The notes beneath the pieces were generated by a model. It ran no database searches and was not told where the DNA came from. It was given only the letters and a program-made list of their open reading frames with translations. DNA of 64,000 bases from Escherichia phage vB_EcoP-ZQ2, in sequence record NC_070874.1, one strand, 5' to 3'. Every line of letters starts with the position of its first letter. The first letter of the stretch is position 1. Both the position numbers and the translations under genes were made by a program. Positions 13,409-33,856 of the stretch are shown here, piece by piece.

Positions 13409-14629
13409 ATGACTACGGAAGCTGCAACCACAGCTTCCGACATTCTCGCAATGTCGGATGATGAGATTCTGAATATGGAAGCCCCAGCAATTATTGCTGA
13501 GGAAGATACTTCCACTCAGAACAACCCAGAAACCAACGGCGTACAGACTCCTGATGAAGAAGTTGACACCTCTGCTGTTGAAGACCTACCAACCGAAGAA
13601 ACCTTCCCTGAAACTGAGCCAGTTGAAGATGATTCAGCAAATTCTTTAACTTCTGATAAAGTTGATGATAAAGTTGTTGACACAGAAGTTGATAGTAACG
13701 GTAAGCCGATTACTGAAGCTGAACCTTCTACTGCTGAACCAGGCCAGGAACAGAAAGAAGAAGGCAAACAGTCTGAAGGTCTGCCTGCTGACTTCAACTA
13801 TAAGGAAGGTTATGAGAAGTTGATGGCTCCTTTTAAAGCTAACGGCAAAATGATTACTCCCCGTTCACCGGAGGAGGCCATTAGCCTGATGCAGATGGGT
13901 GCTAACTATACTCGTAAGATGCAAGAACTACAGCCGTACCGTAAGGTAATGCTGATGCTACAGAACAACGGTTTAATGGATGAGGAAAAACTTTCTTTCC
14001 TGATTGACCTGGATAAGAAGAATCCTGAAGCCATTAAAAAGTTGTTGAAAGACTCTGGTACAGATCCTCTGGACTTTAATCCTGATGAGGAAATTAACTA
14101 CCAGGGTGGCAAACACCGTGTTACAGACACCGAAGCAGATTTTGCAACCGAAATTGACGACTTAAAGTCTACTCAAGAAGGACAAGCTACATTAGGTGTT
14201 ATTAGCTCGACATGGGATGCTGCCAGTAAAGATGCTCTTTATCAGAATCGTGGCTTACTCCACACCATTCACGAACAACGTGAGAATGGTATTTATGACA
14301 CCATTGCTAATGAAGTGAATCGTCTTCAGGTGTTAGGTCAGATTCCGGTAGGTACTCCGTTTATTCAGGCTTATAACTACGTTGGTAACCTCCTTGCACA
14401 ACAGGGAGCATTTAACCAAGTGGCTAAGCCTGAACCAGTACAAGCAGTTAAACCAGCTGTTCAGCCGGTAGTGCGTGTAGCACGGCCTAAGCAGACTCTG
14501 GCTAACAGTGAGCAAGCTAAAGCAGCTTCCCTTAATCGGGCTGCTACACGTAAAGCTACACCTATTGTAAACCCACTCGCTATGAGTGACGAAGATTTCG
14601 CTAAACTCCCAGTACCGGGTAGTCTTTAA
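13409..14629 (+). CDS. putative scaffolding protein
   Basis: 406 aa, highly acidic low-complexity N-terminus, immediately upstream of major capsid gene. Confidence 0.45.
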   Translation: MTTEAATTASDILAMSDDEILNMEAPAIIAEEDTSTQNNPETNGVQTPDEEVDTSAVEDLPTEETFPETEPVEDDSANSLTSDKVDDKVVDTEVDSNGKPITEAEPSTAEPGQEQKEEGKQSEGLPADFNYKEGYEKLMAPFKANGKMITPRSPEEAISLMQMGANYTRKMQELQPYRKVMLMLQNNGLMDEEKLSFLIDLDKKNPEAIKKLLKDSGTDPLDFNPDEEINYQGGKHRVTDTEADFATEIDDLKSTQEGQATLGVISSTWDAASKDALYQNRGLLHTIHEQRENGIYDTIANEVNRLQVLGQIPVGTPFIQAYNYVGNLLAQQGAFNQVAKPEPVQAVKPAVQPVVRVARPKQTLANSEQAKAASLNRAATRKATPIVNPLAMSDEDFAKLPVPGSL

Positions 14630-15915: not shown

Positions 15916-16554
15916 ATGAACATGAGCATTAACGATAAACCGACCACTGACGTAGAAGTGAACGTACAGGGCAACGAAGATACCGTTAACGATATTGCAA
16001 TGCCTAGCGAACTTGAAGTTCTTAAGCAACGTGCAACGTTGATGAATATCAAGTTCTCTAACAACATTTCCGTTGAGAAGCTTCGTGAGAAGATTGAAGC
16101 TGCACAAGTAAAAGATGAACCAGTAGTAGAAGCTGCTGTTAACCCACTGGGTGCTAATCAGGAAGCAGGTGTTAAGAAGATGACCCTGGGTCAGAAGATT
16201 CGTGCAGAACAGACTCGACTGATTCGTGTACGTATCCAGAACCTTGACCCTAAGAAGAAAGATCTGCCGGGTGAGATTATCACCGTAGCTAACGAATATA
16301 TGGGTACTGTACGTAAGTTTGTCCCGTTCGGTGAAGTAACCGACAATGGCTATCATATTCCGTACTGTATCTACGAGTTCCTTAAAGAGCGTAAGTTCAT
16401 CAACATTACGACTCGTAAAGGTAAGAATGGCTTACCGGACATCCGTGCAACAGAAGCACGTGAGTTCTCCATTGAAGTACTGCCTCCGTTGACTGAAGCT
16501 GAATTAGCTCAACTGGCTCAAGCACAGATTGCTGCTGGTAGCCTTAACGATTAA
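15916..16554 (+). CDS. virion structural protein (N4 gp55-like position)
   Basis: 212-aa ORF. Confidence 0.45.
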   Translation: MNMSINDKPTTDVEVNVQGNEDTVNDIAMPSELEVLKQRATLMNIKFSNNISVEKLREKIEAAQVKDEPVVEAAVNPLGANQEAGVKKMTLGQKIRAEQTRLIRVRIQNLDPKKKDLPGEIITVANEYMGTVRKFVPFGEVTDNGYHIPYCIYEFLKERKFINITTRKGKNGLPDIRATEAREFSIEVLPPLTEAELAQLAQAQIAAGSLND

Positions 16555-16624
16555 CGTATAAGCTACAGTTCAACACGGCTCACTGGGGTAACTCCGTGGG
16601 CCGTTTCTTTTTGAACCGAGAGGA

Positions 16625-17467
16625 ATGATTATGTCTTGTTCTGCTGAGGTAGAAGCTAACCGACTCCTAGAAGAGTTAACTAAGGGTGATGACTTTACCC
16701 TTCCTGATATTGATATGTCCGGCCCTGAATGGGATATCCCAGGTGGAGATGGTTCCCCAATCTTTGGTGCTATTACTAAGATAACCAATGAATCTCTTAC
16801 TACCCGTGAAGTAGGTGGTAGTGGTACGTTTGATGCATTAATGGAATCTGCACATAATCACCTTAAAGCTGAGTTTAAGGCTAACCGTATTACAGGTGGT
16901 GAATATACCAAAGCGTATATTGCTATGATGGAATCATGCATGAGTAATGCTGTTCAGTTCTTACTTGGTCGTGACCAGGCATACTGGGCTGCTGCACTGG
17001 CACAGATTCAAGCAGTTACTGCTCGTGTTCAATTGGCAACTACTAAAGCTCAGTTTGTACTGGCTAAGATTCAGGCACTGTCTGCTAAGAGTGAATACGC
17101 TCTTACTAAGATGAAGATTGCTACTGAATCTGAGACATATTGTGCTGCATTGTTTAACGTTAATCAGATGTTACCTCAACAGCTTAAGCTGATTACTGAG
17201 CAAACCGAATCACAACGTGCACAGACACTGGATACTCGTACTGATGGTGCAGTAGTTAAGGGTTCTGTTGGTAAACAGAAAGAACTGTACTCTCAACAGA
17301 TTACTTCTTATCAACGTGATGCAGAAGTTAAAGCATCTAAGCTGTTTACTGATGCATGGATTACTCAGAAAACTATTGATGAAGGCTTGAATCCACCAAA
17401 TGGTTTCACTAACGCAAGTATTGATACCATTCTGTCCAAGCTGAAGTCTAACAACGGGCTGAACTAA
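16625..17467 (+). CDS. virion structural protein (N4 gp54-like position)
   Basis: 280-aa ORF, alpha-helical/coiled-coil rich. Confidence 0.45.
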
Positions 17468-17468
17468 T

Positions 17469-20123
17469 ATGGGTTTATTCAGTGGGAAGACTAAAGTATA
17501 CGTAGCATCCTCTGTCTATAACATGGCAGGGGATATACATAAACGTCCTAACTATATGAAGACTGTAGTCATTGGCAATATTATTTCCAATACAGGATTC
17601 ACTATGGCAGACACTATCTCTGATAGTTATCTGAATGGGCCTGGTATTCGTATGCGATTGTTCTCCAGCTGGAGCAAGAACCACTATGATTCAGAAGTTG
17701 GTATGGCAGGCTCTTCATTAGGTGTACTGGCTAAGATTGACCCTACTGTTATAGAAGGTCAAATTACACCCCCTGCTGGAGAGTCTGTTTATGTTCAGGC
17801 AGCAGAGATTGGTTTTGCTGACTTTGAGCAATGGTGTGACCAGTATCTTTATGAGAATGCTCCAAGTCGAATCATGGAACGATTCGACATAGACATTAAT
17901 GAAGATACTAATGAAATTACGATGACCTCTTTAGATGGAGGTTCCACTATTACATTCACACCTACTAACTTTGAACCAGGTGCTTTATATCTCTATGCTG
18001 ATTACTCTTTCTATAAGTCTCCCTCTACCAATCCACCGGTAGTAGGACCAACTACTGTCTATGATAGTGAGGGTGACTTACCCTCAACTTTGTTATGGAC
18101 TACTGTCTCAAGTGATACGACAGCTAATACAGCCAATCTTACTAAGACTATACATACTCATTCCGTCTACTCTGATGGTAGACCAGATGAAGACAGTACT
18201 GTCACCGAACCAAGTGTAGATAACTGGAACTCTTACGTTAAGGTTTACCGTAGAGGGTTTACAGAGAAACCTAATGATGTAACTGTAGTTGTATCTGACA
18301 GAGTAATGACACATAAAAAGTTTGGTGAGATACAATCCAGTACTTCTGTAACTACCAATGTAGTTGATATAGGTGGAGGAGTTACTCGTACTGATACAAT
18401 TACTACAACCACAGAGACACTGGTTCGTAAGTACTCATCCCAGACTACTCGCACTGATACTGAGATGACTGCTGTTGGTACACCTAAGCTGCTTATCTAT
18501 AAGCAGAACTCTGGTAACGTTGCACTGGATTCACTGTTTAATACTGAGGCTACTGATAACCGATTCTATCCATTCATTCCAATCAGGAATGATAAGCAAT
18601 GGGTAGAGAACGACCCAATCTACCCACACTGTAAGAAAGCTCTTTATAAAGCTACTGGTGGTAAGCTCAATAATGTAATGACGGAGCTTAAGAAGAATAA
18701 AGACATAGGTGATATTCAGTACATTTATGGCACATTCGGTGTATCTCTTAATTCTCCTGAAGATACTGCTAAGGAATACATTTACCGTTTCTTTCAGATG
18801 GCTACTGAAGCATTTCCACCTGACCCAACCTACCCGACTTTGGAAGCAGTAATTGCAGGTTATCAGGCAGCTAATGATGCAGTTGATGCATACGTAGAAT
18901 GGTGGAACAGGACTGAAGGGCATACTATTGGAACTCCTCCACCACTGCCAGAATACCCTGTAATACCTAAACGAGAGTTTAGAGTGCATAGTAATAAGCA
19001 TTATAAATATGACATGACCATTGGTTGGAACTATGTGTCTGAAACTACACATTCAGGGCAAGCATGGGCTGGGGCTAAGCAGGGACAACTACGAGCCAGG
19101 TATGCAGGTGATATTACACTTACCCGTAAGAACATAAGGACAGCTTCTAACTCCGGTTCTGCTAAGAAACTCGAGGTAACATATACATTCTATTCAATGC
19201 AGGAGTATGAGTTACTTTGGCAGGACGGTAATAACACTTACCGTAAACTCAGAGTACTGGGCCTAAATCACTATAACAGGGTGTATAAGAATAAGTCAGT
19301 GCACATTGATGTTGCTGGGGCAATGGGTGATGCAGAAGAGAGTGGGTTCATTATCCCACTACACACTAACATTTATCGTTCCATGTCACTGGTTCGAAGT
19401 ACTCAGCTATCCACTGCCTGTTCCTACTTAGTGATGAACTCATATAAGAAGGTTAAGAAGAAATGGTATCAGACTGGGGCTTTTAAGATTGTTGTTGTAG
19501 TGGTCGCTGTGGTTATCTCTGTATTTACAGCTGGTGCAGGTGGTGCAGGTATACTTGGTGCATATGGTGCAGTTGGTGCATCTCTGGGTTTTGTTGGATT
19601 AGCTGCTGTGATAGTTGGTGCTGTAGCAAATGCTATTGCTGGAATGATTCTGGTATCCATTATCACTAAAGTATCCACTTCACTGTTCGGGGACAAGCTG
19701 GGCTTTATCATTGCTGCTATTGCTTCAATGGTAGCTATGAATGTTGGTACTGCTTTGTCTACTGGTACATCCCTATCTACCCTGGCAAGTGAAATGATGA
19801 ATGCCCAAAACATCATGCAGCTTACCAGTTCAGTAGGTAATGGTATTAGCCAGTATATTAATGCATCTACGGCTGCTACTATTCAGAAAGCAGAGAAAGT
19901 AATGCAGCAGTACAATACTGATATGATGGCAATCAATAAGCAGTATGAAGAGATGTTTGGTACTGCTGGGCAGGGTGTAATTGACCCAATGCAATTCGTG
20001 TCAATGGAGTCACTGGATTCATTCTTATCACGTACTCTTATGACTGGTTCAGATATAGCTGACCTGTCCTTAGATATGATAGGTAACTTCTCTGACATGA
20101 CTCTTAATACTGACTTAGTTTAA
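17469..20123 (+). CDS. internal virion / ejection protein with C-terminal multi-TM Gly/Ala-rich region
   Basis: 884 aa; C-terminal ...[45 protein letters not shown]... strongly hydrophobic. Confidence 0.5.
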
Positions 20124-20136
20124 CAGGAGAATCCCC

Positions 20137-20580
20137 ATGGATTTATCATTTTTAACAGGCAACCAAACTCCACAGCCAGCTGCTATGTCTTGGATGTCTA
20201 ATAACAATCAGAACTTTAATACCCCGGCTATGAACTATAACCCTGGTGCAGCTATTGGTATGGGTACGAATTTGGGTACATCTGCCCCTACTTCTTTCAT
20301 GTCTGGTTCAGCTAATCAGTTGGGTCTGAACGTACCAACCTTCCAATTAGGACTGGGTGCACTTGGTTCATTAGCTAATATCTATAGTGGTTTCCAGGCT
20401 AATAAGTTAGCCAAAGACCAGTTGAACTTTACTAAGAGTGTTACTAACACTAACCTGAATAATCAGATTAAGTCTTATAACACTGCACTAGAAGACCGTG
20501 CTCGTAGCCGTGCTGTTGCAGAAAACCGTGACCAGTCTTCAGCTGATGCTTACATTGCAGCTAACAAATTAACCCGTTAA
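20137..20580 (+). CDS. hypothetical virion protein
   Basis: 147-aa ORF. Confidence 0.45.
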   Translation: MDLSFLTGNQTPQPAAMSWMSNNNQNFNTPAMNYNPGAAIGMGTNLGTSAPTSFMSGSANQLGLNVPTFQLGLGALGSLANIYSGFQANKLAKDQLNFTKSVTNTNLNNQIKSYNTALEDRARSRAVAENRDQSSADAYIAANKLTR

Positions 20581-20592
20581 TAGGAAACCATC

Positions 20593-22539
20593 ATGGCTCA
20601 GATTACATGGCGTAATGTTGATGCACCTAACTTTTCTGGAGTTGGTGACAGCATTCGCACATTTGGAAGCATGATTGGTAACGCCACCTCCGGCTTAAGT
20701 GATGCACTGGGTAACTTCCAGAACGCTGCCAAGCAGGAGGCTGGCAATGCCGTCATGATGAATGCTCTGCGGTATCAAGACCCTACTGAGTATCGTAATG
20801 CTTTGGCATCCGGTGCATTGTTTCAGGGGGTTGACCCTACACTGGTAAACCAACATACCCTCCAGAATCTGGATGAGCGAGCAGGTACTCTTCTGACTCA
20901 ACAAGGTCAGCAAGGAACCAATGACTACAACGCTTATAACTTTGGTCGCTTAAAGGATGTTAACTCTGCATTAGATAACGCATCCCCAGCTATTCGTTTA
21001 CTGTCTGAGGCTTATCAGTCTGGTGACCAGAATCGTATTAATGCTGCATTGAGTCAGACTCGTGATGCACTGTCTGCACTTCCTGCTGACCAACAACTGG
21101 ATATGTTGGGTCGTCTACAAGGGCAAGGTGGTCAGGCTATTAACCAAGCACAGAACCGCTTTGATTTGGGCGTGGCTCAGCGTAATGATGCTGATTCACA
21201 AGCTGCATCCGGTATACTGACGGACATCTTCCGTAGTGCTTCCACTCCTATGGATGCACTTACACAGGCAGAGTCTGCTATGCAAAATGCTTCCCCTGGC
21301 GTACGTGCTGCAATTATGCGAGGTGTGAACGAGAGATTCCCAGGTACTTATGCCACGTCTGCTTCTGGCTCTGCTCCAGGAACTGCTGGTACTCGTTCTG
21401 GTTCTCCTTATGATGCAACCTATACCTTTGCTGCTACTGATAAGCCTATTACTGAAATGACACTGGGTGAGGTTACTAATCATCAACAGAGTATGATTAA
21501 TAATCCATCACAAGGTCATTCCCCTGTAGGTGCGTTCCAGATTAATAAAGCTACTCTGGAAGACTATGCACCTAAAGTACTTGGTTCAGACTGGCGTAAT
21601 CAGCAAATGACTCCGGAAGTACAGGACAAAATCGCTGAAGCAATCTTCAATGACCGTAAGGGTGGTAACCTTTCTAAGACTTGGGCTGCATTGCCTGACC
21701 TGGGTGTAGGTGGTTATAAGGATATGCCTTGGAGTGAGGCACGTCAGTTAATTGCACAAGCGGAGGTAGGAGCACCTCTTGATCAGCAACAGACCCAACA
21801 AGTAGTTTCAAAAATGGCAGGCAATACAGTTGCTGCACGTCAGTCTGAAGATAATACTGGAACCATTACTGCTAACTATGCTCGTGCATTACGCGACAAT
21901 TCTACTATTGGTGAAGTAGCAGATCGTCTTCTTAAGGATGCTTTTAAAGGTTCTGAGAAAGGATGGGTGATTGCTCGACTGAATGATGTTATGCAGGAAT
22001 CCGGGCAGTCTCCTGCCGTAGCTGCTGAGATTCTTAAGCAGTCTACTACTAACGTACCTGAAGGTATGATTAGTCGAGCACTTGATGCACTTAACCCATT
22101 CATCTCTAATGAGGGTGGTGGTGGTATTCGTATTGATGATACCGTTGCCAGAGAACTAGCACGTTCAGTTCGTCGTGGGGAAGGTATTGAAGCTACTGCT
22201 CGTGATAATGTTCTTACACAGGTACAAGGTAATATTGAAAATGCTCAGAATCAGGTAAACCAGGCAGAAGCCTTGCTTATTGATACTCGCCGTCGTGTGG
22301 CTGCTGGGCAAAGAGGACTTGCTGCTACTATTCCTGCCCGTGAGGCTGAGTTAGTAAGAGCACGGGCTGCACTGGATGCTGCTGTTAATACTGTGGTAGC
22401 TAACCAGGGAAACCTGGTTCCACAGAACTTCCGTTCTAATGCTTCAGTAGAACGTGAGCGTAGTCGTGAAGACGAAGAACGGGCTAAACGTTATCGAAAA
22501 TTAGCAGAGGGTTTACCTCCCTATATGCAACCTCGATAA
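20593..22539 (+). CDS. internal virion protein (N4 gp51-like position); possible lytic transglycosylase-like segment
   Basis: 648 aa; segment ...GHSPVGAFQINKATLEDY...AIFNDRKGG... weakly resembles a GH23 motif. Confidence 0.45.
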   Translation: MAQITWRNVDAPNFSGVGDSIRTFGSMIGNATSGLSDALGNFQNAAKQEAGNAVMMNALRYQDPTEYRNALASGALFQGVDPTLVNQHTLQNLDERAGTLLTQQGQQGTNDYNAYNFGRLKDVNSALDNASPAIRLLSEAYQSGDQNRINAALSQTRDALSALPADQQLDMLGRLQGQGGQAINQAQNRFDLGVAQRNDADSQAASGILTDIFRSASTPMDALTQAESAMQNASPGVRAAIMRGVNERFPGTYATSASGSAPGTAGTRSGSPYDATYTFAATDKPITEMTLGEVTNHQQSMINNPSQGHSPVGAFQINKATLEDYAPKVLGSDWRNQQMTPEVQDKIAEAIFNDRKGGNLSKTWAALPDLGVGGYKDMPWSEARQLIAQAEVGAPLDQQQTQQVVSKMAGNTVAARQSEDNTGTITANYARALRDNSTIGEVADRLLKDAFKGSEKGWVIARLNDVMQESGQSPAVAAEILKQSTTNVPEGMISRALDALNPFISNEGGGGIRIDDTVARELARSVRRGEGIEATARDNVLTQVQGNIENAQNQVNQAEALLIDTRRRVAAGQRGLAATIPAREAELVRARAALDAAVNTVVANQGNLVPQNFRSNASVERERSREDEERAKRYRKLAEGLPPYMQPR

Positions 22540-22556
22540 AATCTTACATACTAATA

Positions 22557-22580
22557 AAGCCCCATCCGGGGCTTTTCTCT
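22557..22580 (+). terminator. rho-independent terminator
   Basis: AAAGCCCC-ATCC-GGGGCTTT plus T-run. Confidence 0.6.
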
Positions 22581-22624
22581 TACATTCACTTACTGTACAG
22601 TGAATCTTCTTATACGATATAAGT

Positions 22625-25600
22625 TTGAACAGGAATCATGCTATGTCAACATTTGACCGTCTGGCAGGTTTCGCAGACAGCATCACTACTGCTAAGCAAG
22701 TCGATGTCTCTACTGCAACCTCTCGGAAACAAGCTGAACAAGGGCAAAACCCTTTCCAATTAACCCCACAGAACGCCTACCAGTTACAGGCAGGTCGTGC
22801 CGGTGATTTAGGTGCTGGTGCATTTGACCCAGGTTCTATTCAGGCAGATTTTACTAATGCCTCTCCTCTTGAAATCATAAACAAGTATGGCAATGAGCAA
22901 GGAATGGACATTCTTAATGCTCGTGTCAATGCAGCTAATGCTGTTCGTCGTGATTTAACTAAGAGTCGTACATATGGTGAAGCACTTGGTGATACCCTTT
23001 CTGGTGTTGGTCTTGGTGTTGCTAATACCCTTGGGGGCATTGCTGCTCTTGGCACAGGCTTGGTCAATGATAATGCCGGGGCATCCATTGCTTCCGGTCT
23101 TGACTGGTTGAACAAAGGTGTACACAACCTACAGTCTGATGCACTGAATGCTCGTCGTAATGTAGTACAGAACCAGAACGTAATATCTGCACAGGAAAAC
23201 GAAAAACAATATAAGCAGGATATTGATAAAGGAGAAAGTGAACTCGTTGCTTCCTTGTCTCGTATTGGTCGGGATGCTTACGATTCAGTTGCTAATACTT
23301 TGTCCAATGGCATGGCTGCTACAGATGGTATTGCTGAAGGTGTTGGTTCACTGTTTACTGGTGGTCCACTTATCCGTGGTGTATCTGCACTTGGTAAAGT
23401 AATGGTAGGTGGGGATAAAGCTGTTAAGGGTATTACCTTAGCTGCTGAATTAGGTTATCGTCCTGCACGTATTGCACAGACTGCTGGTCGTGTTGCTGCA
23501 CCTGCTATAGCAATTGGTGGTATGGAAGCTGGTGGTGCATACCAACAGACTGCTAATGAAATTATGGAAATGCCATTCAGTGAACTGGCTGCTAAATCTC
23601 CTGTATACCAACAACATATTAAAGATGGTTTAACTCCTGAAGAAGCACGACGTCAGACTGCATCTGAAACAGGTATCACTGCTGCTGGCTTAACCGCCCC
23701 AGTTGCTGCTCTCACTGGTCCACTGGTATCCAAGTTTGAACTTAACCCACTTAAGGTAGGTTCACTGGCTGGTGCTGGTTCTAACATGCTACGTGAGACT
23801 GTGGAGGAAGGTATTCAATCCGGTTTCGGTCAATTCGCACAGAACAAAGCAATTCAGGGTAACGTGGATGCTAATCGTGATTTGCTTAAAGGTGTAGGTG
23901 AACAAACTGGTCTAGGTGCATTGTATGGCTTTGGTTCTGCTGGGGTTGCTCAAGCTCCTGGTGTAACTGCTAAGACTGCCGTTGCTGCCGTTGGTCCTGC
24001 TGTACGTACTACCCTGGCTGGTGCTTCTCTGGCTGGTAAGGCACTAGCAAAAGTAGCTTCTCCTATTACTAACATTCTGGTTCAGCGTGGAGAAGAAGTT
24101 GCTAAGCGAAATGAGCAAGCATCTCCTGTATCAGACGTTACGGTTAATGCTGCTGCACAAGAAGCTACTGCTCAGGCAGAACAGGCTCAAGCAACTGTTC
24201 AGGAAGCAGTAGATGCAATGGACATTTCTCCAGAAGAGAAAGCTGCTGCTACTCAGTATGCTGCTGACTTAACTCAGGCAATGAAGTTTGACCCAGTAGA
24301 ACTGGAACAAGCTAGTCCAGCAATCCGTGAAGCTGTTTCTGGTTCCACTAACCGTGTTGAAGCTATTCAGAAGATGGCTGACCTGGTTAATACTGCCGAA
24401 GATCCTAACGTTCAAATGGAAGCTGCAATCCAGATGTATGACAACATCATGTCTATGGATAGCTTCATTAACCGTGACCCAGGTGCATTAGCTAATCTGG
24501 AACAGGGTTCTCCTGCTGCTAATATTGTTGACCAGTTCTCCGGTCTGATGGCTAACGTTCAGAATACACCGAAGGTACTTCGTGCATTCCGTGCCATCCA
24601 TTCCATGATTCAGGAACAGGCAGAAGCAGGTAAACTGAAGGCTACTGAAGAAGCTAACCAAGCCCAAGCAAACAACATTGCTATGGCTGCTGATATGTCT
24701 CCAGAAGTACTGGATGCTGATTCAGTGAACATGGTTCTGAAACACGCAAGTGAAGGTAAGATTACGCTGGGGAATCGTCAGCGTGCTGCCCTGCAATCTG
24801 CTGCTGCTCTATTGCAAGGAGCACGAGAATTTGATGCTAAAGCAGAAGAGCTAGGCTTACGTCCTCAAGACATTGTTAGTAAACAAATTAAAACCGACGA
24901 ATCTCGTTCTAATGAAGGCCAGTACTCTGCGTTGCAACATGCTAAACGCATTCGTTCTGCGTATAACTCTGGTAACTTCGATTTGGCTTCCGCTTATCTC
25001 GATGACTTTATGAAGTTCGCCCAGCACATGCAGAATAAGGTCGGAGCGTTGAATGAGCATTTGATTTCTGGGAATGCGGATAAGAATAAGTCTGTCCATT
25101 ATCAGGCTCTTACTCCCTCCCGTGAATGGGTACGTAGTCGTACTGGCCTCGGTGTTAATCCGTATGATACCAAGTCTGTTAAGTTTGCCCAGCAAGTAGG
25201 ACTGGAAGCCAAGACCGTAGCTGATATTGCTAACGCACTTGCTACGGCTTACCCGGAGCTTAATGTTTCTCATGTGAAAGTTACCTCATTGGATTCACGT
25301 CTGGACAAGCCTGCTGCCCAGGTAGTTAAAGAGTTCCGTCAGGGCAATCTTGACGCTGCTCAATCCCAACAGACTAATGAACCAGTGAATCAGGTTGATG
25401 AAACTCCTGTTACAAAACAGGAACCAGTTACCCCTACTGTACAGACTAAACCCTCTGTTAGTGAAGCTGTTAAAACAGAACCCACTATTAAAGAGTCTAA
25501 ACCACAGTCTGTAAAAGAACCTGAGAACCAGTCTGAAAAACAGGATACCGTTGATCAGTCTACTGAATCTGAAAGGGATGCTTATGTAAAAGAGAATACT

Positions 25601-28600
25601 ATTTCTCAAGATACTCTTAATAAGTATGGCGACCGTAAAGAGAGTCCATGGCTCTTTGCTGATGGTACTGTTGTTGGTTCTAATGGTGACCACATTAGCT
25701 TGTCCGATGTATTTGGACATGATGGTTATCGTGATATGTCACTAGATACAGGTGCTATTCGCTCTACCTTCTACAAAGGAAGCGAGCAACCATTTGTATC
25801 ATTGCAACTGTTTGATAATCAGAAACTGACTACTGAACAGTTCAATACTGTTCAATCATTCGTAGAAGCAAACAATGCACTGATTCAGATTGGTGTAGAT
25901 ACATCTGGGCTTAATACCAATAACGTTGAGAAAGAAGAAGTATCACTGGCTCAATTGAAAGCAGACTATACCGTTGGTGGTAAACCTCTATCTCAAATGG
26001 AAACAGTGTTCCCTGTCTATAACAATGAAAAGACACCGAACCAGTTCCTTAAAGCATTCTCTCTACCGGAAGAACCTAAGTCCCGTACCATTGGTTCTGA
26101 ATCTCCTTTGACTGATGTTAAGAAAGCACTGTCTTCTGTTGCTCGCTTTGAATCATTCACTCAAAAAGAAAATAACGCTCTCACAAGTGATGTGATTAAG
26201 CGTTACCAGGACTTATTTGATTTTGGTGAAACTCTGAAGACTACTCTGTCTGACCGTCTGGCTAAGTTCCTTGCTAACAAGAATGTTGGTAAACGTTTTG
26301 CAGAAGGTACTGAGGCTAACCGTTGGGTAGGTGGTAAATTACTTAACATCGTAGAGAAAGACGGAGATACCTTTAAGTTCAATGACCAGTTGTTAGAGAC
26401 TGCTGTACTTGCTGGTCTGCAATGGCGACTGACTGCTACACAGAATGCTGCCATTAAAGACATGCAGGATGTGGCTGCAATTACTGGTGTAAATGCTTCC
26501 TTGTTACCAGAAGGTATCCTTGCAGAGTTTGAGAATGCTCAAACCTTAGTAGAAGCTACTAACTCACTGGCTCAAAAGATTGAATCTTATTGGGGTCTTA
26601 ACCGCAATGCTGATGCACCTCTGGGCTATACCAAAGGTATCCCGATGGCAATGGCTACAGAGATTCTGTCTTCCCTTATTGAGATGGGTGAAGTTAAAGA
26701 GTCCATGTTGGATGTGTCTGAAATTGACTCAGAATCTAATAAGACCATTGGCCTGTATACCATTGAGAAGCTGGATGATACCGACGCCATTAACAAATTC
26801 CCTACTGCTATTGAGGAAGCTGTCCTCATAGAACCAGAAGAGAAACTGTACCTGGGTGATGACATTCCTTCCGTGGCTCCTACTCAGTTACGTAACCCAG
26901 CTGTTCGTAATACCCCAGAACAGAAAGCTGCTCTTAAAGCAGAACAGGCTACAGAGTTCTTTGTACATACCCCAATGGTTCAGTTCTATGAGGCGTTAGG
27001 TAAAGACCGTATCCTCGAACTGATGGGTGCTGGTACTCTGAATAAAGAATTACTTAACGAGAACCACGCTAAATCGCTGGAAGGTAAGAACCGTTCAGTA
27101 GAAGACTCTTATAACCAATTGTTCTCTGTTATTGAACAGGTAAGAGCACAGAGTGAAGACATCTCTTCTGTGCCTATTCATTATGCATACAATATGACCC
27201 GTGTCGGTCGTATGCAGATGTTAGGTAAATATACCCCCCAATCAGCTAAGCTGGTTCGTGAGGCTATCTTACCTACCAAAGCTACCCTGGATTTATCGAA
27301 CCAGAACAACGAGGACTTCTCGGGCTTCCAGCTTGGACTGGCTCAGGCATTGGGTATCAAAGTTCATAAAATGACTCGTGAAACTATGTCAGAAGAACTT
27401 ACCAAAGCTCTGGAAGGTAAGCTGAAACCTGCTGTAGATATGATGGTTGAGTTTGATAAGTCTGGATACTTACCTACTGATGCAGTGGATATCTTGAGAA
27501 CATCTCTGGGTAATGATAAGTCCTTTGTAGCTCTCATGGCTCTTATGGAGTATGCCCGTTACCTTAACAGTGATGACCGTGCCAACTTTAATACTCCTCT
27601 GTACGTTGAAGCTGATGGTGTAACCAACGGACCAATCAACGCAATGGTATTAATGACAGGTGGTAAGTTCACTCCAAACTGGATTAAGAATACTGCCAAA
27701 GGTGGTTTGTTCTTCGGTAAAGCCGGTAAGACTATGAATGAGCATCATACTCAGGATGATAGTGTTGACCTGTATGAAGCATCTACCAATAGTCTGCAAT
27801 TCCATCTGAATGAATTACGTAATACTTATAGTAAGAATATTCCTGTTATAAACCAGATGGACCATCTCCAGAAGTTAATGGACCTGTTCATCAAAGACTT
27901 CAATCTTAATGAAGATGGTACTCTGGACCTGAAACGTGGTATCGCTAAAAACCCACTAACCATTACTATCTATGGTTCTGGTGCTCGTGGTATTGCAGGC
28001 AAAATGGTAAGTGCAATTACTGATACCATCTACGAGCGTCTAAGCGACGTTCTGAAAGCCCGTGCTGCTGACCCTAACATTTCCCCAGCTATGGCGATGT
28101 TTGGTAAGGAGGCTGCGTCTGAAGCCGATGCTCAGGCTAAGCTGGATACTTTCCTTACTTCTATGAAAGAACTGACTGGCAAGATTCCAGCCAAACGTAA
28201 AGGTAGGTTATTTATTAAGGAAGTAGAAGGTGCTCTGACTGGCAAGTTAAATCCTCAGAAGTTTACCGTATCAGGGGATGCTCTGAAGAACTTACAAGAG
28301 AATATGCTGCACTTCTTTGTTGAGCCAATGAGACAAGGTATTCGGTTTACTGTTGGTGAAGGATTAATGCACTCTACTGAGAACTTGCAGAAGGCTACCC
28401 AGATTCAATCTCTGGTATTGCAGGATATGTTCCAGCAAGCAGTACAGGCTAAGCTGGCAGAAAAAGAAAAAGACCCAACATGGAAGAAAGGTGATTTCTT
28501 AACACAGAAAGAACTGAATGAAATTCAGAATAGCTTAGCTCCTCTGGCTCCAATGATTAAAACTGGTTCGCAGACTTTCTACATTGCTGGTAGTGAGAAT

Positions 28601-31600
28601 ACTGATGTTGCTAACCAAGTATTGGCTACTAACTTAGATGACCGTATGCGTGTACCAATGAGCATCTATGCTCCTTCGCAAGCAGGTGTTGCAGGTATTC
28701 CATTTATGACCATCGGTACTGGTGATGGCATGATGATGCAGACTCTTTCTACTATGAAAGGTGCTCCGAAGAATACCCTGAAAATCTTTGATGGTATGAA
28801 CATTGGTATTAATGACATTACTGATGCAAGCCGTAAAGCTAATGAGGCTGTATATACTTCCTGGCAGGGTAACCCTATCAAGAATGTATATGAGTCTTTC
28901 TCTAAGTTTGTTAAGAATGTTGATTTAAATAAGCTGTCCGATTCAGCAATAGATGCTATTGCAAAGTCTGCTTTAGACTTTGAGCAGCGTGCTCATATTG
29001 CCAGGGTAGATGGTGATAGAGATTATAAAATTTCTATGATTAGAGATTCTGGTATTGCATTAATTGAGCGTAACCTACGTAACATTGCTTTGGGTGTAGA
29101 TATTCGTCACAAGGTAATGGACCAGGTACAAGTCACTGTTGACCAGATGGCTGCTGTAGGTGCTCCTTATGTGAACAACGGTAAAATCTCTCTGGAAGGT
29201 CTGACTATAGACCAGCAAGTAGCCAAGCTGAACGAACTGTTTGATGCTGAATTAAACAAGCGTCGTGATGCAGTACGTGCTGCTAAAGCGGAACCAACGA
29301 AGGCAGAACCAGTGAAGGAAGTGCCGGTGAAAGTTGTACCAGCTATGGAGAAGGTAGGTCGTGTACTGAAGTCTGGTGTACGTCTGCTGTCTAATACTGC
29401 TATCACTAAGCTGGCTAAAGAAATGACCCCTGATCAGCAAGCAGTATTGAAAGAAATACAGAAATCCCTTGCTGCTAAAGACTATAAGGTTGTTTACGGT
29501 ACACCTTCTCAACTGGATGCTTATGCCATTGAGAAGAATATTACTCGCCCAGCACCGGAAGATATTGAAGCTGCTGAAGCTGGTAATGCATACGGCTGGA
29601 CTAACTTTGAAGATAAGACCATCTACTTAGTTACCCCTTCCTTAGAGACTCTGGTTCATGAATTAGTACATGCCTCTACTTTTGAATCTGTGCTGGCTCA
29701 CTACGAGGGTACTCCTAATGAAGCAGTCCAGAATATTGAAGACTTGATGAACCAGTTCCTTACTCTGGATGTTAAGGATGAATCTCCGGCAGTACGTGAA
29801 GCGTATGCCGATGCACTGAATACCATTAATGGTCACCTGTCTAATGGCTTCATTGAACCAGCAATGGCTAAAGCTGCTGCTCTGAATGAGTACATGGCTT
29901 GGGGTTTAACCAACCGTGAACTTATTAGTAAGCAGAAGAAAACCACTGCACTTAAAACTATGGTTCAGGCTGTATATGAAGCAATCAAACGTCTGGTATT
30001 TGGGCGTAAGAAAGCTCCAGCTAATGCAGATGATATGTTCTCAGGCTTACTGTTTAACTCTGCTGTAGTAATGCGTGGGCAGGCTCCTACTGCTGCTGTA
30101 GCTAAAGACACTACTCTGTTCCATAACAAAGCATACGGTAACAATACTCGTCTGGAAGAGTTAGGTAAGACCTTCGATAAACTAATTACTGACTACATTG
30201 GTTCAGAACCAGTACAGCAAGTAATTCGTAAAGGTAAGTTCTCTGATGCAGTAGTGAATGCAACTAAAGTAACTCGTGATGTTCAGGCTCATGGCTTCAC
30301 CATGAATATGCAGGAACAGCGTCTATTTACTAACATTGTTGCTGCACTTGCTACTGAGGCTGCTATTAACCCAGCAGCCATGGCTCGTGCACAGGAATAC
30401 TACACGCATGTTACTAAGAACTTGACCGTTGAAGCGTTCATGGCTGACCCAGATAGTACTAACCCTGCTGACCGTTACTATGCACAACAGAAGTTCGACA
30501 CCATCATGGGTGCTAACAACATTGAGTTTGATGCACAAGGTCGTTCTTCCTTACTGCCTACCTTTGTTGGTCTGGCAATGGTAAGTGAAGAGGTACGTAA
30601 GGTACTGGCTGATATTCCTGTTATGAAAGCAGATAAGAAATCAGGTAATACTGTTGACGCAATGCTGACTAACATCGGTACTGCTGCAATGGTTAGTCTG
30701 AATGCTCGTGTAGCAGGTGATACTAAAGCCACTAACGTGCGGGAAGGTATGGATGCACTGGCTCAGACAATTATGGAGACTAGCCTTAATGCACAATCTT
30801 TCTATGATTCCGTTGCTACCCCTACTGGTAATGCTATCGACCGTGCTAACCAATATCTGGTGGATTCTATTGATGTACTGTCTACTCGTACTTTGGAAGG
30901 TGCTCGTGAAGTTGCAGCTAATACCAAGAACCCACTAGTTAAAGGTGCTGCTCATGCTGCACAATTGGTAGCTGCTATTGCTACAGAGAAAAATGGTGCA
31001 ATTGTAGCTGAGGGTGTTATGGCTGCAATGAACCAGGGTAAAGTATGGCAACCGTTCCATGACCTGGTTAATGACATAATCGGTCGTACTAAGAGCAATG
31101 CTTCTGTATACGATTTGATTAAAGCAGTACGTGCACAGGTGCAAGCTGACCGTCAACAGTTCCGTGAGCATTTGCCTACCACTATCGCATCTAAGTTCAG
31201 CCGTAAGCTGACTAATGATGAGTGGAAAGCAATGCATACCGGTATGGGTAAAACTGACTTAGCTGTTCTTCGTGACACTATGTCTCTGGCTGAAATCCGT
31301 GACCTGTTGACTGACCAGAAGATTGTTGACCGTGAGGTTAATAAACTGGAAGCAGATTTGCAGAAGCAAGCCGGACGTAACTGGCCTCTGATTAGTCGTA
31401 AGTCTAAGCAACTGGCTCAGTACATGATTAATGGTACAGTCGGTAATAACCTGCTGCGTAATGCTACTGCAATTTCTCGTTTACTGGGTGAACGTAAGAC
31501 TACACGTTCTGTTGTAGATGTAGCACAACTGGATAAATTGATTACCCTGTATGCACTGGAAGCAATGAATAAGACTGACCGTGAGATGTTATCTTCACTG

Positions 31601-33460
31601 GCTCAGACAGAAATTGAAGGCATGGACTTTGCTATTTCTTACCTGGTTGGTCAGCGTAAAGATGAAATGGCTAAAGCTAAATCTGATAGCCGTGCAACCT
31701 TGAACCAGTACAAAGGGTATATTCCCGGTGAGACTAAACAGGGTGTTAATCTGATTGTTGCTGAAGATAATCAGTTTGCTGATTTGATTGAGAAATCCTA
31801 TGTACGTCTGGGTACTTATCAGGGTAGCTCTGCTAACCGTGGTCCAGCACGTAGCTACTACTTTGCACCAGTACAGGCACAGGCTCCATTCTCACAGGGT
31901 ATTCTACAGAACGTTCGTAATACTGCTGGTGGTGTAGACCTTGGTACAGGCTTTACGATGGGGACCATGGTAGCTGGTCGTATCACTGACAAACCTTCCG
32001 TAGACCGTATCACTAAAGCACTGGCTCGTGGTGAACGTGGTAATGAACCACTGCTGCCTGTATATGATACCAATGGTAATGTGGTTGCTTATGAGCAATC
32101 CATTGACCCAAGCATGCTGAAGCACATCGAGGGTGAGAACCATCTTGCTCGTGCAATCGGTGTATGGCGAGGTCGTCAGGTAGAAGAGGCTAAGGCTCAG
32201 CGTTTCAACGATATGCTGATTGAGAACCTGCATAGCATGTATGAGAACGACATTAAAATGTCTGCTTCTAATAAGTCCCAGTACGTTAACCTTCTTGGTT
32301 CTAAACTGGACCCAGTAACTGCTGATGCACTTAAGCTGATGAACAGTGAAACTCGTCAGAAAGCAGAAAGTCTGTTTGGCCCGGGTGAGCTATGGGTACG
32401 TCGTGACATGCTGAATGATGCACTAGGTTATCGTGCAGCTTCTGTTGGTGATGCCTGGTCTGGTAATTCTCGTTGGTCCCCAGAAACACTGGATACCTTC
32501 AAGAAAGCTATGCTGGGTGTCTTCGGTAACCGAGCCTATAAATATGTAATGGGTGGTGAGAACCTGGTTCAAAACTTAGTTAAAGAAGCTAAGACTCTAA
32601 TTGTAGTTAAGTCAGTAGTTGTACCTGCTGTTAACTTCCTGGCTAACCTTTACCAGATGGTTGCTCGTGGTGTACCTGTTAAGAACATTGCTAAGAGCAT
32701 TCCACAGAAGACTGCTGAGATTAATCAGTACCTGAAATCTCGCCTGCGTCAGGTAGATGCAGAAGCAGAATTACGTGCAGCTACTAACCCGAACCAGATT
32801 CGTAAACTTAAGGCTGAGATTCAATCAATCACTGATAGCCATAAACGTTTGAGTATCTGGCCTCTGTTAGAAGCTGGTGAGTTCTCTTCAATTGCAGATG
32901 CTGGTATTGGACGTGATGACATCCTGATTACTGAAGGTAAGATTCACGAATACATGGATAAGCTGGCTGATAAGCTGCCTAAGTCTGTACGTAACGCAGG
33001 TCGTTATGCACTTATCACTAAGGATACTGCTCTGTTCCAGGGTATCCAGAAGACGGTTGAGTACTCTGACTTTATCGCTAAAGCAATCATCTATGATGAA
33101 CTGACTCAGCGTAAAGGTAAGACTCGCGAAGAAGCACTGGGACGTGTAACAGAAGAGTTCATTAACTATGACCGTCTGCCAGGTCGCTTCCGTGGGTATA
33201 TGGAAAGTGTTGGTCTTATGTGGTTCTATAACTTTAAGATTCGTTCTGCAAAAGTTGCAGTATCCATGATTCGTAACAACCCAGTACATGCTGCTATGGC
33301 TATGTTGGCCCCAACCCCTACCATGTTTGGTAATGTTGGTCTGCCTATTAAGGACAACATCTTTAGTATTGCTGCACAGGGCAACCTCGGTTACTCCTTC
33401 GGATTCGGTATGGGCTTACGTGCCCATACCCTGAACCCGTGGCTCAACCTTACTAACTAA
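22625..33460 (+). CDS. virion-encapsidated giant RNA polymerase (N4 vRNAP-like)
   Basis: single 3611-aa ORF; central region with T7-like RNAP-type motifs (IYGSGARGI, FDGMNIG); position next to internal virion protein genes. Confidence 0.8.
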   Translation: MNRNHAMSTFDRLAGFADSITTAKQVDVSTATSRKQAEQGQNPFQLTPQNAYQLQAGRAGDLGAGAFDPGSIQADFTNASPLEIINKYGNEQGMDILNARVNAANAVRRDLTKSRTYGEALGDTLSGVGLGVANTLGGIAALGTGLVNDNAGASIASGLDWLNKGVHNLQSDALNARRNVVQNQNVISAQENEKQYKQDIDKGESELVASLSRIGRDAYDSVANTLSNGMAATDGIAEGVGSLFTGGPLIRGVSALGKVMVGGDKAVKGITLAAELGYRPARIAQTAGRVAAPAIAIGGMEAGGAYQQTANEIMEMPFSELAAKSPVYQQHIKDGLTPEEARRQTASETGITAAGLTAPVAALTGPLVSKFELNPLKVGSLAGAGSNMLRETVEEGIQSGFGQFAQNKAIQGNVDANRDLLKGVGEQTGLGALYGFGSAGVAQAPGVTAKTAVAAVGPAVRTTLAGASLAGKALAKVASPITNILVQRGEEVAKRNEQASPVSDVTVNAAAQEATAQAEQAQATVQEAVDAMDISPEEKAAATQYAADLTQAMKFDPVELEQASPAIREAVSGSTNRVEAIQKMADLVNTAEDPNVQMEAAIQMYDNIMSMDSFINRDPGALANLEQGSPAANIVDQFSGLMANVQNTPKVLRAFRAIHSMIQEQAEAGKLKATEEANQAQANNIAMAADMSPEVLDADSVNMVLKHASEGKITLGNRQRAALQSAAALLQGAREFDAKAEELGLRPQDIVSKQIKTDESRSNEGQYSALQHAKRIRSAYNSGNFDLASAYLDDFMKFAQHMQNKVGALNEHLISGNADKNKSVHYQALTPSREWVRSRTGLGVNPYDTKSVKFAQQVGLEAKTVADIANALATAYPELNVSHVKVTSLDSRLDKPAAQVVKEFRQGNLDAAQSQQTNEPVNQVDETPVTKQEPVTPTVQTKPSVSEAVKTEPTIKESKPQSVKEPENQSEKQDTVDQSTESERDAYVKENTISQDTLNKYGDRKESPWLFADGTVVGSNGDHISLSDVFGHDGYRDMSLDTGAIRSTFYKGSEQPFVSLQLFDNQKLTTEQFNTVQSFVEANNALIQIGVDTSGLNTNNVEKEEVSLAQLKADYTVGGKPLSQMETVFPVYNNEKTPNQFLKAFSLPEEPKSRTIGSESPLTDVKKALSSVARFESFTQKENNALTSDVIKRYQDLFDFGETLKTTLSDRLAKFLANKNVGKRFAEGTEANRWVGGKLLNIVEKDGDTFKFNDQLLETAVLAGLQWRLTATQNAAIKDMQDVAAITGVNASLLPEGILAEFENAQTLVEATNSLAQKIESYWGLNRNADAPLGYTKGIPMAMATEILSSLIEMGEVKESMLDVSEIDSESNKTIGLYTIEKLDDTDAINKFPTAIEEAVLIEPEEKLYLGDDIPSVAPTQLRNPAVRNTPEQKAALKAEQATEFFVHTPMVQFYEALGKDRILELMGAGTLNKELLNENHAKSLEGKNRSVEDSYNQLFSVIEQVRAQSEDISSVPIHYAYNMTRVGRMQMLGKYTPQSAKLVREAILPTKATLDLSNQNNEDFSGFQLGLAQALGIKVHKMTRETMSEELTKALEGKLKPAVDMMVEFDKSGYLPTDAVDILRTSLGNDKSFVALMALMEYARYLNSDDRANFNTPLYVEADGVTNGPINAMVLMTGGKFTPNWIKNTAKGGLFFGKAGKTMNEHHTQDDSVDLYEASTNSLQFHLNELRNTYSKNIPVINQMDHLQKLMDLFIKDFNLNEDGTLDLKRGIAKNPLTITIYGSGARGIAGKMVSAITDTIYERLSDVLKARAADPNISPAMAMFGKEAASEADAQAKLDTFLTSMKELTGKIPAKRKGRLFIKEVEGALTGKLNPQKFTVSGDALKNLQENMLHFFVEPMRQGIRFTVGEGLMHSTENLQKATQIQSLVLQDMFQQAVQAKLAEKEKDPTWKKGDFLTQKELNEIQNSLAPLAPMIKTGSQTFYIAGSENTDVANQVLATNLDDRMRVPMSIYAPSQAGVAGIPFMTIGTGDGMMMQTLSTMKGAPKNTLKIFDGMNIGINDITDASRKANEAVYTSWQGNPIKNVYESFSKFVKNVDLNKLSDSAIDAIAKSALDFEQRAHIARVDGDRDYKISMIRDSGIALIERNLRNIALGVDIRHKVMDQVQVTVDQMAAVGAPYVNNGKISLEGLTIDQQVAKLNELFDAELNKRRDAVRAAKAEPTKAEPVKEVPVKVVPAMEKVGRVLKSGVRLLSNTAITKLAKEMTPDQQAVLKEIQKSLAAKDYKVVYGTPSQLDAYAIEKNITRPAPEDIEAAEAGNAYGWTNFEDKTIYLVTPSLETLVHELVHASTFESVLAHYEGTPNEAVQNIEDLMNQFLTLDVKDESPAVREAYADALNTINGHLSNGFIEPAMAKAAALNEYMAWGLTNRELISKQKKTTALKTMVQAVYEAIKRLVFGRKKAPANADDMFSGLLFNSAVVMRGQAPTAAVAKDTTLFHNKAYGNNTRLEELGKTFDKLITDYIGSEPVQQVIRKGKFSDAVVNATKVTRDVQAHGFTMNMQEQRLFTNIVAALATEAAINPAAMARAQEYYTHVTKNLTVEAFMADPDSTNPADRYYAQQKFDTIMGANNIEFDAQGRSSLLPTFVGLAMVSEEVRKVLADIPVMKADKKSGNTVDAMLTNIGTAAMVSLNARVAGDTKATNVREGMDALAQTIMETSLNAQSFYDSVATPTGNAIDRANQYLVDSIDVLSTRTLEGAREVAANTKNPLVKGAAHAAQLVAAIATEKNGAIVAEGVMAAMNQGKVWQPFHDLVNDIIGRTKSNASVYDLIKAVRAQVQADRQQFREHLPTTIASKFSRKLTNDEWKAMHTGMGKTDLAVLRDTMSLAEIRDLLTDQKIVDREVNKLEADLQKQAGRNWPLISRKSKQLAQYMINGTVGNNLLRNATAISRLLGERKTTRSVVDVAQLDKLITLYALEAMNKTDREMLSSLAQTEIEGMDFAISYLVGQRKDEMAKAKSDSRATLNQYKGYIPGETKQGVNLIVAEDNQFADLIEKSYVRLGTYQGSSANRGPARSYYFAPVQAQAPFSQGILQNVRNTAGGVDLGTGFTMGTMVAGRITDKPSVDRITKALARGERGNEPLLPVYDTNGNVVAYEQSIDPSMLKHIEGENHLARAIGVWRGRQVEEAKAQRFNDMLIENLHSMYENDIKMSASNKSQYVNLLGSKLDPVTADALKLMNSETRQKAESLFGPGELWVRRDMLNDALGYRAASVGDAWSGNSRWSPETLDTFKKAMLGVFGNRAYKYVMGGENLVQNLVKEAKTLIVVKSVVVPAVNFLANLYQMVARGVPVKNIAKSIPQKTAEINQYLKSRLRQVDAEAELRAATNPNQIRKLKAEIQSITDSHKRLSIWPLLEAGEFSSIADAGIGRDDILITEGKIHEYMDKLADKLPKSVRNAGRYALITKDTALFQGIQKTVEYSDFIAKAIIYDELTQRKGKTREEALGRVTEEFINYDRLPGRFRGYMESVGLMWFYNFKIRSAKVAVSMIRNNPVHAAMAMLAPTPTMFGNVGLPIKDNIFSIAAQGNLGYSFGFGMGLRAHTLNPWLNLTN

Positions 33461-33495: not shown

Positions 33496-33856
33496 ACTTC
33501 TTAACTACAAGAGCTTTTCGGTCAGTTTTGATTACATAATCAATCTTGTTGGCATTAAAGTGAATATCTACAAAATTGGCGTCTACCTTTTGGTAAGTAC
33601 CGTTGTTTCTGCGAATACCTAACTTCTTACAGTGAACCATTGCGATTCCTGTATCCGGTATAGCAATCCAGTTGTTATCATCAATTTGTACATCACAACC
33701 AAAGGTTAAACGATGTCTTGCTTTACGATGGACATGTAAACCACCAATACGCTTTGGTATAATCTGACCCTTCCTAAAGAGTTCCAATGTTTGAACTTGA
33801 TGCGCTGCAAATGATTTAGTCATGCGTTCTCCACATCTTGGGCTTACGCCCTTCAC
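33494..33856 (-). CDS. hypothetical protein, possible degenerate HNH-like nuclease
   Basis: 120 aa; His/Asn spacing GGLHVHRKARHRL...DDNNW...VHCKK loosely HNH-like; overlaps upstream ORF by 41 nt. Confidence 0.3.
   Translation of the reverse strand: MKGVSPRCGERMTKSFAAHQVQTLELFRKGQIIPKRIGGLHVHRKARHRLTFGCDVQIDDNNWIAIPDTGIAMVHCKKLGIRRNNGTYQKVDANFVDIHFNANKIDYVIKTDRKALVVKK

Follow-up and report, generated by a model that had tools for sequence, protein, structure and literature searches.

A predicted lambda-lysozyme-type domain without the canonical catalytic glutamate in the periplasmic-tunnel ejection protein of the N4-like Escherichia phage vB_EcoP-ZQ2

The ejection machinery of short-tailed phages leaves one step open, namely how a channel, and in phage N4 also a 380-kDa RNA polymerase, is taken through the peptidoglycan. 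The closest described system is N4 itself (PDB 11MN, 9YF4, 9YFT; Bellis et al., Nat Commun 2026, PMC13434306), in which ejection proceeds from release of the tail plug to a pore of gp52, then a tunnel of gp51, and finally the passage of the polymerase and DNA. Applying sequence-profile and structure-prediction approaches to a 64,000-nucleotide stretch (the window) of Escherichia phage vB_EcoP-ZQ2 (NC_070874.1), we analysed the orthologous locus at positions 17,469-22,539 and, within it, the 648-amino-acid (aa) homologue of gp51. This tunnel protein contains a compact domain that profile comparisons relate to the lytic transglycosylase of phage lambda (endolysin R), with the sugar-cleft residues kept and the canonical catalytic Glu missing, which makes the open step directly testable.

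N4 virions hold gp52 inside the tail lumen and gp51 in a position surrounding the portal; neither protein remains in empty particles, and each of them forms channels in planar bilayers (PMC13434306). A truncated gp51 (delta-C, residues 1-359) assembles into a decameric tube with a leg fold resembling that of T7 gp15, of which residues 52-255 were resolved (PMC13434306). The N-terminus of gp51 was modelled in contact with gp52 at the outer membrane, while its hydrophobic C-terminus was proposed to reach the inner membrane and the protein was proposed to bind the N-terminal domain of the polymerase (PMC13434306). The vB_EcoP-ZQ2 proteins are orthologues encoded in the same gene order, the gp52 and gp51 homologues lying between the plug and virion RNA polymerase genes as in N4, with comparable lengths (648 versus 644, 147 versus 150 and 884 versus 885 aa) and E-values from 1e-44 to 0. 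Conservation between the two phages extends to the hydrophobic block of gp53 and to the central block of gp51. N4 nevertheless belongs to a separate lineage: the 5.1-kb region is closest to that of Escherichia phages St11Ph5, ECBP1 and relatives, also N4-like, with 92-93% DNA identity. We conclude that the locus serves tail gating and ejection in an N4-like schitovirus. An earlier reading of the sequence alone, made on the letters and their open reading frames (ORFs), had proposed that the 648-aa protein is an internal virion protein of an ejectosome preceding the polymerase, and its homology to N4 gp51 (PDB 11MN, PMC13434306) bears this out. By analogy with N4, the actual outer-membrane pore former would be the 147-aa gp52.

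The sequence-only reading had also singled out a GAFQIN...AIFNDRKGG segment in the 648-aa protein. Both strings fall within a block at residues ~262-395 which is the best conserved part of gp51 across 18 homologues. A profile of this block retrieved 737 cluster representatives at E <= 1e-3 among 1.84 billion proteins, a lower bound for the size of the family, each representative standing for a cluster at 50% identity. The majority were gp51-like proteins of 550-800 aa with the block at ~250-420, alongside proteins of 130-320 aa starting right at the block and others bearing it near one end. Modelled by AlphaFold2 (AF2) with 62 diverse sequences, the block formed a compact, mainly helical domain with a predicted local distance difference test score (pLDDT) of 93.9 and a predicted template modelling score of 0.88; a model of full-length gp51 with 18 close homologues was too poor for use (pLDDT 55). 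Given this family and this confident fold, the motif is more than a chance resemblance. Sequence and model together indicate that gp51 would not be purely helical and that residues 262-395 would form a compact domain descended from the lambda type of lytic transglycosylase. The disorder of residues beyond 255 in delta-C-gp51 would then be accounted for, since the construct ends at 359 and cuts the domain in half. Genes and gene roles were known before; what is novel is a lambda-type fold devoid of its catalytic helix, together with a large family devoid of Pfam or NCBIfam hits. The domain appears to be described in neither the N4 nor the DEV structural papers, although one GenBank record calls a homologue a "lysozyme containing protein".

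The affiliation of this domain was established against a canonical lambda-type set composed of lambda R, the phiM12, Atu_ph07 and BB8 proteins introduced below, and 8 of 11 cellular or prophage proteins of ~200 aa annotated as "muramidase (phage lysozyme)". This set was assembled in such a way because a homologue search with lambda R yielded only sequences at least 85% identical, unfit for a profile. With hhalign, the gp51-type profile matched the canonical set over 125 columns (98.7% probability, E = 1.9e-16) and lambda R alone at E = 2.4e-4. PHROG assignments crossed in both directions: phrog_90 comprises lambda R, the central region of phrog_6126 (the gp51 family) was matched by canonical members as well, and one gp51-type member matched phrog_90. 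Weak Pfam matches among 62 members of the domain family were to Transglycosylas ("Transglycosylase-like", 11 of 62) and to SLT (7 of 62, sub-threshold, best E = 8e-4). Beyond gp51 homologues, a Foldseek search of predicted viral structures (BFVD) returned gp5-type baseplate hubs, a peptidase M15B fusion, a protein annotated as SAR endolysin transglycosylase and a protein with a peptidoglycan-binding-like domain. Furthermore, the family consensus was compared by tblastn with 50,697 phage genomes; outside schitoviruses it matched a protein annotated as "baseplate hub subunit and tail lysozyme" in phiM12, phiM7 and Atu_ph07, as well as the N-terminal part (residues ~29-118) of a protein named "internal protein D" in the T7-like Bordetella phage BB8. 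The phiM12 hub record notes COG4678, a lambda-type muramidase, and the translated phiM12, Atu_ph07 and BB8 proteins clearly resemble the lambda endolysin, with an N-terminal helix ending in EGT or EGA followed by YD or YN, GxYQ, QD and WASLP.

In the joint alignment, the gp51 domain carries the core motifs YD, GxYQ, QD, WAxLP and GxY. On these profile and motif comparisons, we regard it as a homologue of the lambda-endolysin type of lytic transglycosylase. The likeness to lytic transglycosylases suspected from the letters is thereby substantiated by hhalign and PHROG, with the lambda-endolysin type and not SLT as the relative; as lambda R is itself a lytic transglycosylase, the hunch was right in kind. 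The SLT idea had been prompted by the stretch GMMQFTKATAKALG of T7 gp16, which we take to resemble the gp51 motif. Membership of SLT (GH23), a family marked by the motifs E-S ... GLMQ ... AYNAG, was rejected: the window protein has no Pfam SLT match, the profiles favour the lambda type, and no Glu stands at the end of helix 291-302. As a side observation, gp51 residues 296-363 (21478-21681) weakly matched the tape-measure family phrog_6090 (E = 6.8e-5, profile positions 1501-1565), so that some siphovirus tape-measure proteins may embed a gp51-type domain.

Compared with lambda R (GH104 or GH24 depending on the database source; PHROG 90), the gp51 domain shares the fold and the motifs Y-D, G-x-Y-Q, S/T-P-x-x-Q-D and W-A-S/A-L-P...G-x-Y. 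By contrast, it has no N-terminal helix, its counterpart of Glu19 is Ala, and an invariant Glu stands at the end of its last helix; it also carries an extra helix (286-302) that is common to the rhizobiophage gp5-type tail-lysozyme group and not to lambda. Whereas lambda R is a free endolysin, the gp51 domain is embedded midway in an ejected tunnel protein. Its closest canonical relatives are the T4 gp5-type hubs with tail lysozyme (phiM12, phiM7, Atu_ph07), which share the inserted helix "MTxGxV..LQ..ML" but belong to contractile-tail puncturing devices, keep the catalytic helix "L(D)xxGxxEGTD" and lack the invariant C-terminal Glu.

In the hhalign and MAFFT alignments, the canonical "S-E-G-T-D-R-G-x-x-Y" stands opposite "T-A-G-T-R-S-G-S-P-Y" in gp51, which places Ala265 in the column of the catalytic Glu. 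Glu occupied this column in 0 of 151 representatives of the gp51-type family, which are at most 50% identical to one another. In almost every member, a Gly/Ala/Ser/Pro-rich linker stands where the canonical proteins have the N-terminal catalytic helix, and the short stand-alone proteins begin at the YD motif. With Ala265 in place of the canonical Glu, peptidoglycan-hydrolase activity cannot be assumed. In the complex of lambda lysozyme with chitohexaose, the sugar is contacted by Gln68, Trp124, Ala125, Ser126 and Tyr132, with the Gln68 side chain hydrogen-bonding to it (PMC6916166). These residues correspond to gp51 Q316, W364, A365, A366 and Y375, all conserved, and the equivalents of lambda Asp34 (D274) and Gln91-Asp92 (Q344-D345) are also kept.

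The family moreover has an invariant acid of its own, Glu391, present in all 151 representatives and immediately preceding (S/V)-G. The canonical relatives nearest to the domain, which share the inserted helix, have Arg, Lys, Gln or Ala in the same column, mostly Arg or Lys, whereas lambda R has K147-E148 there, with the alignment uncertain by one residue. T4 lysozyme contains a Glu11-Arg145 pair. By analogy with it, the combination of Glu with Arg or Lys in canonical proteins, against Ala with Glu in the gp51 type, suggests a swap, with the acid perhaps displaced to the other side of a contact, and the Arg or Lys of the canonical relatives is expected to pair with their catalytic Glu. Glu391 is accordingly proposed, from conservation, as a candidate substitute catalytic acid. 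Other candidates were dropped. A circular permutation moving the catalytic helix to the C-terminus is at odds with the last helix aligning with the canonical last helix and hence not being an added element, and E293 is Glu in only 58% of cases, with Asp in 25% and Gln in 12%. Upstream, a motif "DA(R/L)..(L)AE(S/A)" at gp51 221-230 (21253-21282), ~45 residues before the central domain, recurs in many gp51-like proteins, and its Glu227 is invariant among close homologues. E227 was also dropped as part of a displaced catalytic helix: it sits in the resolved leg fold, the motif ("DAR..LAE") has no EGT signature, and the stand-alone proteins start at YD.

Domains of this type were found in other viral contexts. 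In metagenomic tectivirus contigs, a 261-aa protein (P0174, L005 6001-6786) consists of a Glu-less gp51-type domain and a C-terminal transmembrane segment; its gene follows a run of small genes downstream of a P3-type capsid gene, a gene for 122 aa comes next, and one for an M15 peptidase after that. At the matching place, PRD1 encodes P7, a 265-aa protein associated with the virion membrane and annotated as transglycosylase (Pfam SLT, E = 6.7e-29), followed by a 117-aa holin. The two proteins thus share size and neighbourhood while bearing an SLT domain in P7 and a Glu-less lambda-type domain in P0174; no sequence similarity was detectable between them, and the situation looks like a non-orthologous domain displacement. 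Other short members adjoin large structural or M23-peptidase proteins, and one lies in a module with a separate Amidase_2 gene, probably the endolysin. In none of the four contexts examined is the gp51-type domain the sole candidate endolysin. Outside the gp51 type, internal protein D of BB8 (L001 5917-6400), a gp16 homologue, has at its N-terminus a lambda-type lysozyme domain of the canonical kind (with AEG), in the place of the SLT transglycosylase domain of T7 gp16. T7 gp16 and BB8 internal protein D likewise place a muralytic-type domain on an ejected internal podovirus protein, next to the tunnel protein. They differ in that their domain is N-terminal on the largest ejection protein, with the canonical Glu kept (AEG in BB8), whereas in gp51 it is Glu-less and part of the gp15-like tunnel protein itself. 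The gp51-type domain thus recurs where virions carry wall-attacking modules, at positions of proven transglycosylases in other viruses such as PRD1 P7 and the N-terminus of T7 gp16.

The overall explanation that we consider probable is that of an N4-like tail-gating and ejection module whose gp51 bears a lambda-type domain engaging the peptidoglycan. In this scheme, a knot of gp53, made of its Gly/Ala/Val-rich stretch and residues 29-56, would plug the inside of the gp54 tube up to the moment of receptor binding; gp52 and then gp51 would be expelled to build the outer-membrane pore and the periplasmic tunnel, and the giant virion RNA polymerase and DNA would pass through this conduit. Since the N-terminus of gp51 is placed at gp52 and the outer membrane, and its C-terminus towards the inner membrane, the central domains would form a ring at about the middle of the periplasm, level with the peptidoglycan, and would engage this layer, flanked by the leg on the outer-membrane side and by the C-terminus on the inner-membrane side. 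In the mechanism that we prefer, the domain would still cut glycan strands with the invariant Glu391 as acid, being an active lytic transglycosylase whose catalytic Glu was relocated from the lost N-terminal helix, a proposal whose prospects we judge to be nearly balanced on the conservation pattern. A tentative alternative, which we take seriously, is that the domain is a dead lysozyme, a pseudo-enzyme with its cleft kept that acts as a collar gripping or positioning the tunnel in the peptidoglycan mesh, wall passage then depending on natural pores, host autolysins or another factor. The disappearance of the canonical Glu with its whole helix from all family members while the residues matching lambda sugar contacts persist would suit such a binding role, as would the proposal of the N4 study that an unknown wall-degrading factor is supplied in trans (PMC13434306). 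It is less easily reconciled with the invariance of an acid at the end of a helix across so divergent a family, with the closest canonical relatives having the same fold, inserted helix included, and yet no need for Glu at that column, or with the replacement of a proven transglycosylase domain at the P7 position and the recurrence of the domain in injection-protein contexts where enzymes are the rule.

Several observations weigh against our explanation, in part or as a whole. Both acids of the canonical EGTD motif are lost, and E391 could be structural, since E148 of lambda R, within one residue of that column, has no known catalytic role. The N4 study describes gp51 as predominantly helical and reports no apparent peptidoglycan hydrolase among the ejection proteins, with no assay given (PMC13434306); in the literature searched, with partial coverage, no virion zymogram of N4 turned up. 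Searches of Pfam and NCBIfam gave no match for the four proteins of the locus or for the isolated domain; among PDB sequences, HMMER profiles of the domain recovered N4 gp51 alone; and a Foldseek comparison of the domain model with the PDB gave no significant hit, not to lambda lysozyme either (best E = 0.48). The silence of Pfam and NCBIfam says little, as in the Pfam-A and NCBIfam copies used lambda R itself and its canonical relatives had no match either (L004 194-667, P0391, L001, L002) and were linked by PHROGs only. In addition, profile and tblastn searches detected no copy of the domain in gp72 of the DEV-type schitovirus, so that the domain would not be indispensable to such a tunnel. 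A further reading places the role of the domain outside the cell wall, in docking to the portal crown or to the polymerase N-terminal domain within the capsid, or as a folding checkpoint during ejection. The storage of gp51 around the portal and its proposed binding to the polymerase would be in line with this, but the invariant residues of the domain map to the sugar-contact positions of lambda lysozyme, and it also occurs in unrelated tectivirus, other podovirus, myovirus-hub and short stand-alone proteins, none of which shares such a portal or polymerase; we therefore judge this role improbable.

The gp53 part of the locus is already explained by published structures. The 884-aa protein, aligned over residues 1-883 with the N4 "Gp53" of PDB 9YFT, contains one continuous hydrophobic block, for which the estimate of about 90 residues made from the letters was accurate: Kyte-Doolittle 19-residue windows >= 1.6 cover residues 666-765, or ~100 residues by our count, with a maximum of 2.53, and residues 674-733 form a stretch of 60 residues without charge (23% V, 22% A, 18% G, 13% I). 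This block had been read as the mark of a channel-forming ejection protein, with helices that cross the membrane as part of a conduit for the polymerase and DNA, and its length would indeed suffice for ~4 membrane spans. In N4, however, gp53 is a single-copy plug at the tail tip, seen by cryo-electron microscopy on full and empty particles alike, and the dodecameric tail tube is corked by a hydrophobic knot of short helices to which its residues 29-56 and 670-716 contribute (PMC13434306). Its ~160 C-terminal residues are unresolved in the tail lumen next to gp52 (PMC13434306), which would speak for the channel reading. Both knot segments are present in vB_EcoP-ZQ2 and near-identical to those of N4, and by this homology the first part of the block (~670-716) would be the cork of the tail tube. 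A single copy of gp53 per virion would not suffice for a channel, and channel activity was demonstrated for gp52 and gp51 instead. Judged from the literature on its N4 orthologue, the 884-aa protein would show none of the features of a channel former (multiple copies, storage inside the virion, loss from spent particles, pores), and the channel reading is largely refuted and in our view very improbable. The idea that both proteins noticed in the sequence-only reading belong to an ejectosome transporting the polymerase consequently holds for the 648-aa protein, and for the 147-aa gp52 which it had not mentioned, and fails for the 884-aa plug.

If the domain proved active, gp51 would supply the peptidoglycan-cutting activity reported missing by the 2026 N4 ejectosome study, and the family (at least 737 clusters at 50% identity) would represent a large set of virion-borne muralytic domains in schitoviruses, other podoviruses, tectiviruses and some tape-measure proteins. 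It would also exemplify the natural relocation of a catalytic residue within a lysozyme fold, and new muralytic modules could be drawn from it. Because Pfam and NCBIfam models miss the family, many virion proteins engaging the wall are probably annotated merely as "structural protein".

The features of the locus are collected in Table 1. The ORFs of the 884- and 648-aa proteins lie exactly where they had been placed from the letters, with a third, of 147 aa, between them that had been overlooked; the three are closely packed on the + strand. The position between the capsid genes and the virion RNA polymerase gene was likewise confirmed, with the portal, the major capsid (head) protein, a gp55-like protein and gp54 upstream, and downstream a 3611-aa ORF matching PDB structures of the N4 virion RNA polymerase.

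Table 1. Coordinates of the tail-gating and ejection module of vB_EcoP-ZQ2 and of features within it (positions in the window)
Feature	Position	Strand	Evidence
gp54 homologue, tail tube, 280 aa	16625..17467	+	PDB 9D80 "Tail protein" E = 2.4e-148; N4 Gp54 (9LC0, 9YF4, 9YFT) E = 6e-124; phrog_2050
gp53 homologue, tail plug, 884 aa	17469..20123	+	PDB 9YFT "Gp53" (885 aa) E = 0; phrog_2220
gp53 residues 29-56, N-terminal partner in hydrophobic knot	17553..17636	+	Homology to N4 gp53 29-56
gp53 Val/Ala/Gly-rich block, residues 666-769	19464..19775	+	Hydropathy, composition; near-identical to N4 gp53
gp52 homologue, outer-membrane-channel ejection protein, 147 aa	20137..20580	+	PDB 9YF4 "16.5 kDa protein" E = 1.4e-44; DEV "N4 gp52-like protein" 8VXQ E = 1.4e-4
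gp51 homologue, periplasmic-tunnel ejection protein, 648 aa	20593..22539	+	PDB 11MN "66 kDa protein" (N4 gp51 1-359) E = 7.7e-115; phrog_6126 E = 1.8e-302
gp51 residues 52-255, helical "leg" fold building decameric tunnel	20746..21357	+	Homology to resolved N4 delta-C-gp51
Predicted lambda-lysozyme-type domain without canonical catalytic helix and Glu, gp51 262-395	21376..21777	+	AF2, hhalign, PHROG cross-hits, tblastn
Ala265 codon GCT, column of canonical catalytic Glu (lambda R Glu19)	21385..21387	+	hhalign, MAFFT
GAFQIN, gp51 313-318; G313 and Q316 invariant; equals lambda R G65-x-Y67-Q68	21529..21546	+	Alignments, 151 representatives
AIFNDRKGG, gp51 350-358, end of helix after invariant Q344-D345	21640..21666	+	Alignment
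Glu391 codon GAG, C-terminal end of last long helix	21763..21765	+	151/151 representatives; helix 380-392 in AF2 model
GC-rich hairpin and T-run	22556..22579	+	Read directly: AAAGCCCC-ATCC-GGGGCTTT-TCTC
Virion RNA polymerase (gp50 homologue), third ejection protein	22625..33460	+	PDB N4 virion RNA polymerase entries, E = 0

The hairpin listed in Table 1, which a pattern scan did not report, occupies the 85-nucleotide gap between the gp51 and polymerase genes, and its sequence suggests intrinsic termination or a contribution to RNA stability within the "ejection operon". The polymerase ORF as called by the program opens with a TTG; an in-frame ATG at 22643, leading into MSTFDRLAGFADS and preceded by AGGAA at 22631-22635, is probably the true start of the gene. 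Across positions 16400-22800, matches to sigma-70-like promoters were depleted relative to shuffled sequences (4 versus 13.4 ± 3.7) and terminator-like hairpins enriched (8 versus 3.3 ± 1.7), the majority of the latter lying within coding sequence. Just past the polymerase gene, at 33500-36000, the sign of the GC skew flips and the large ORFs pass from the + to the - strand, marking the boundary of the two divergent gene blocks of the genome. Finally, the 406-aa gp57 homologue (13409-14629) is labelled "tail length tape measure protein" in PHROG, an odd assignment for a short-tailed phage that is probably an annotation carry-over.

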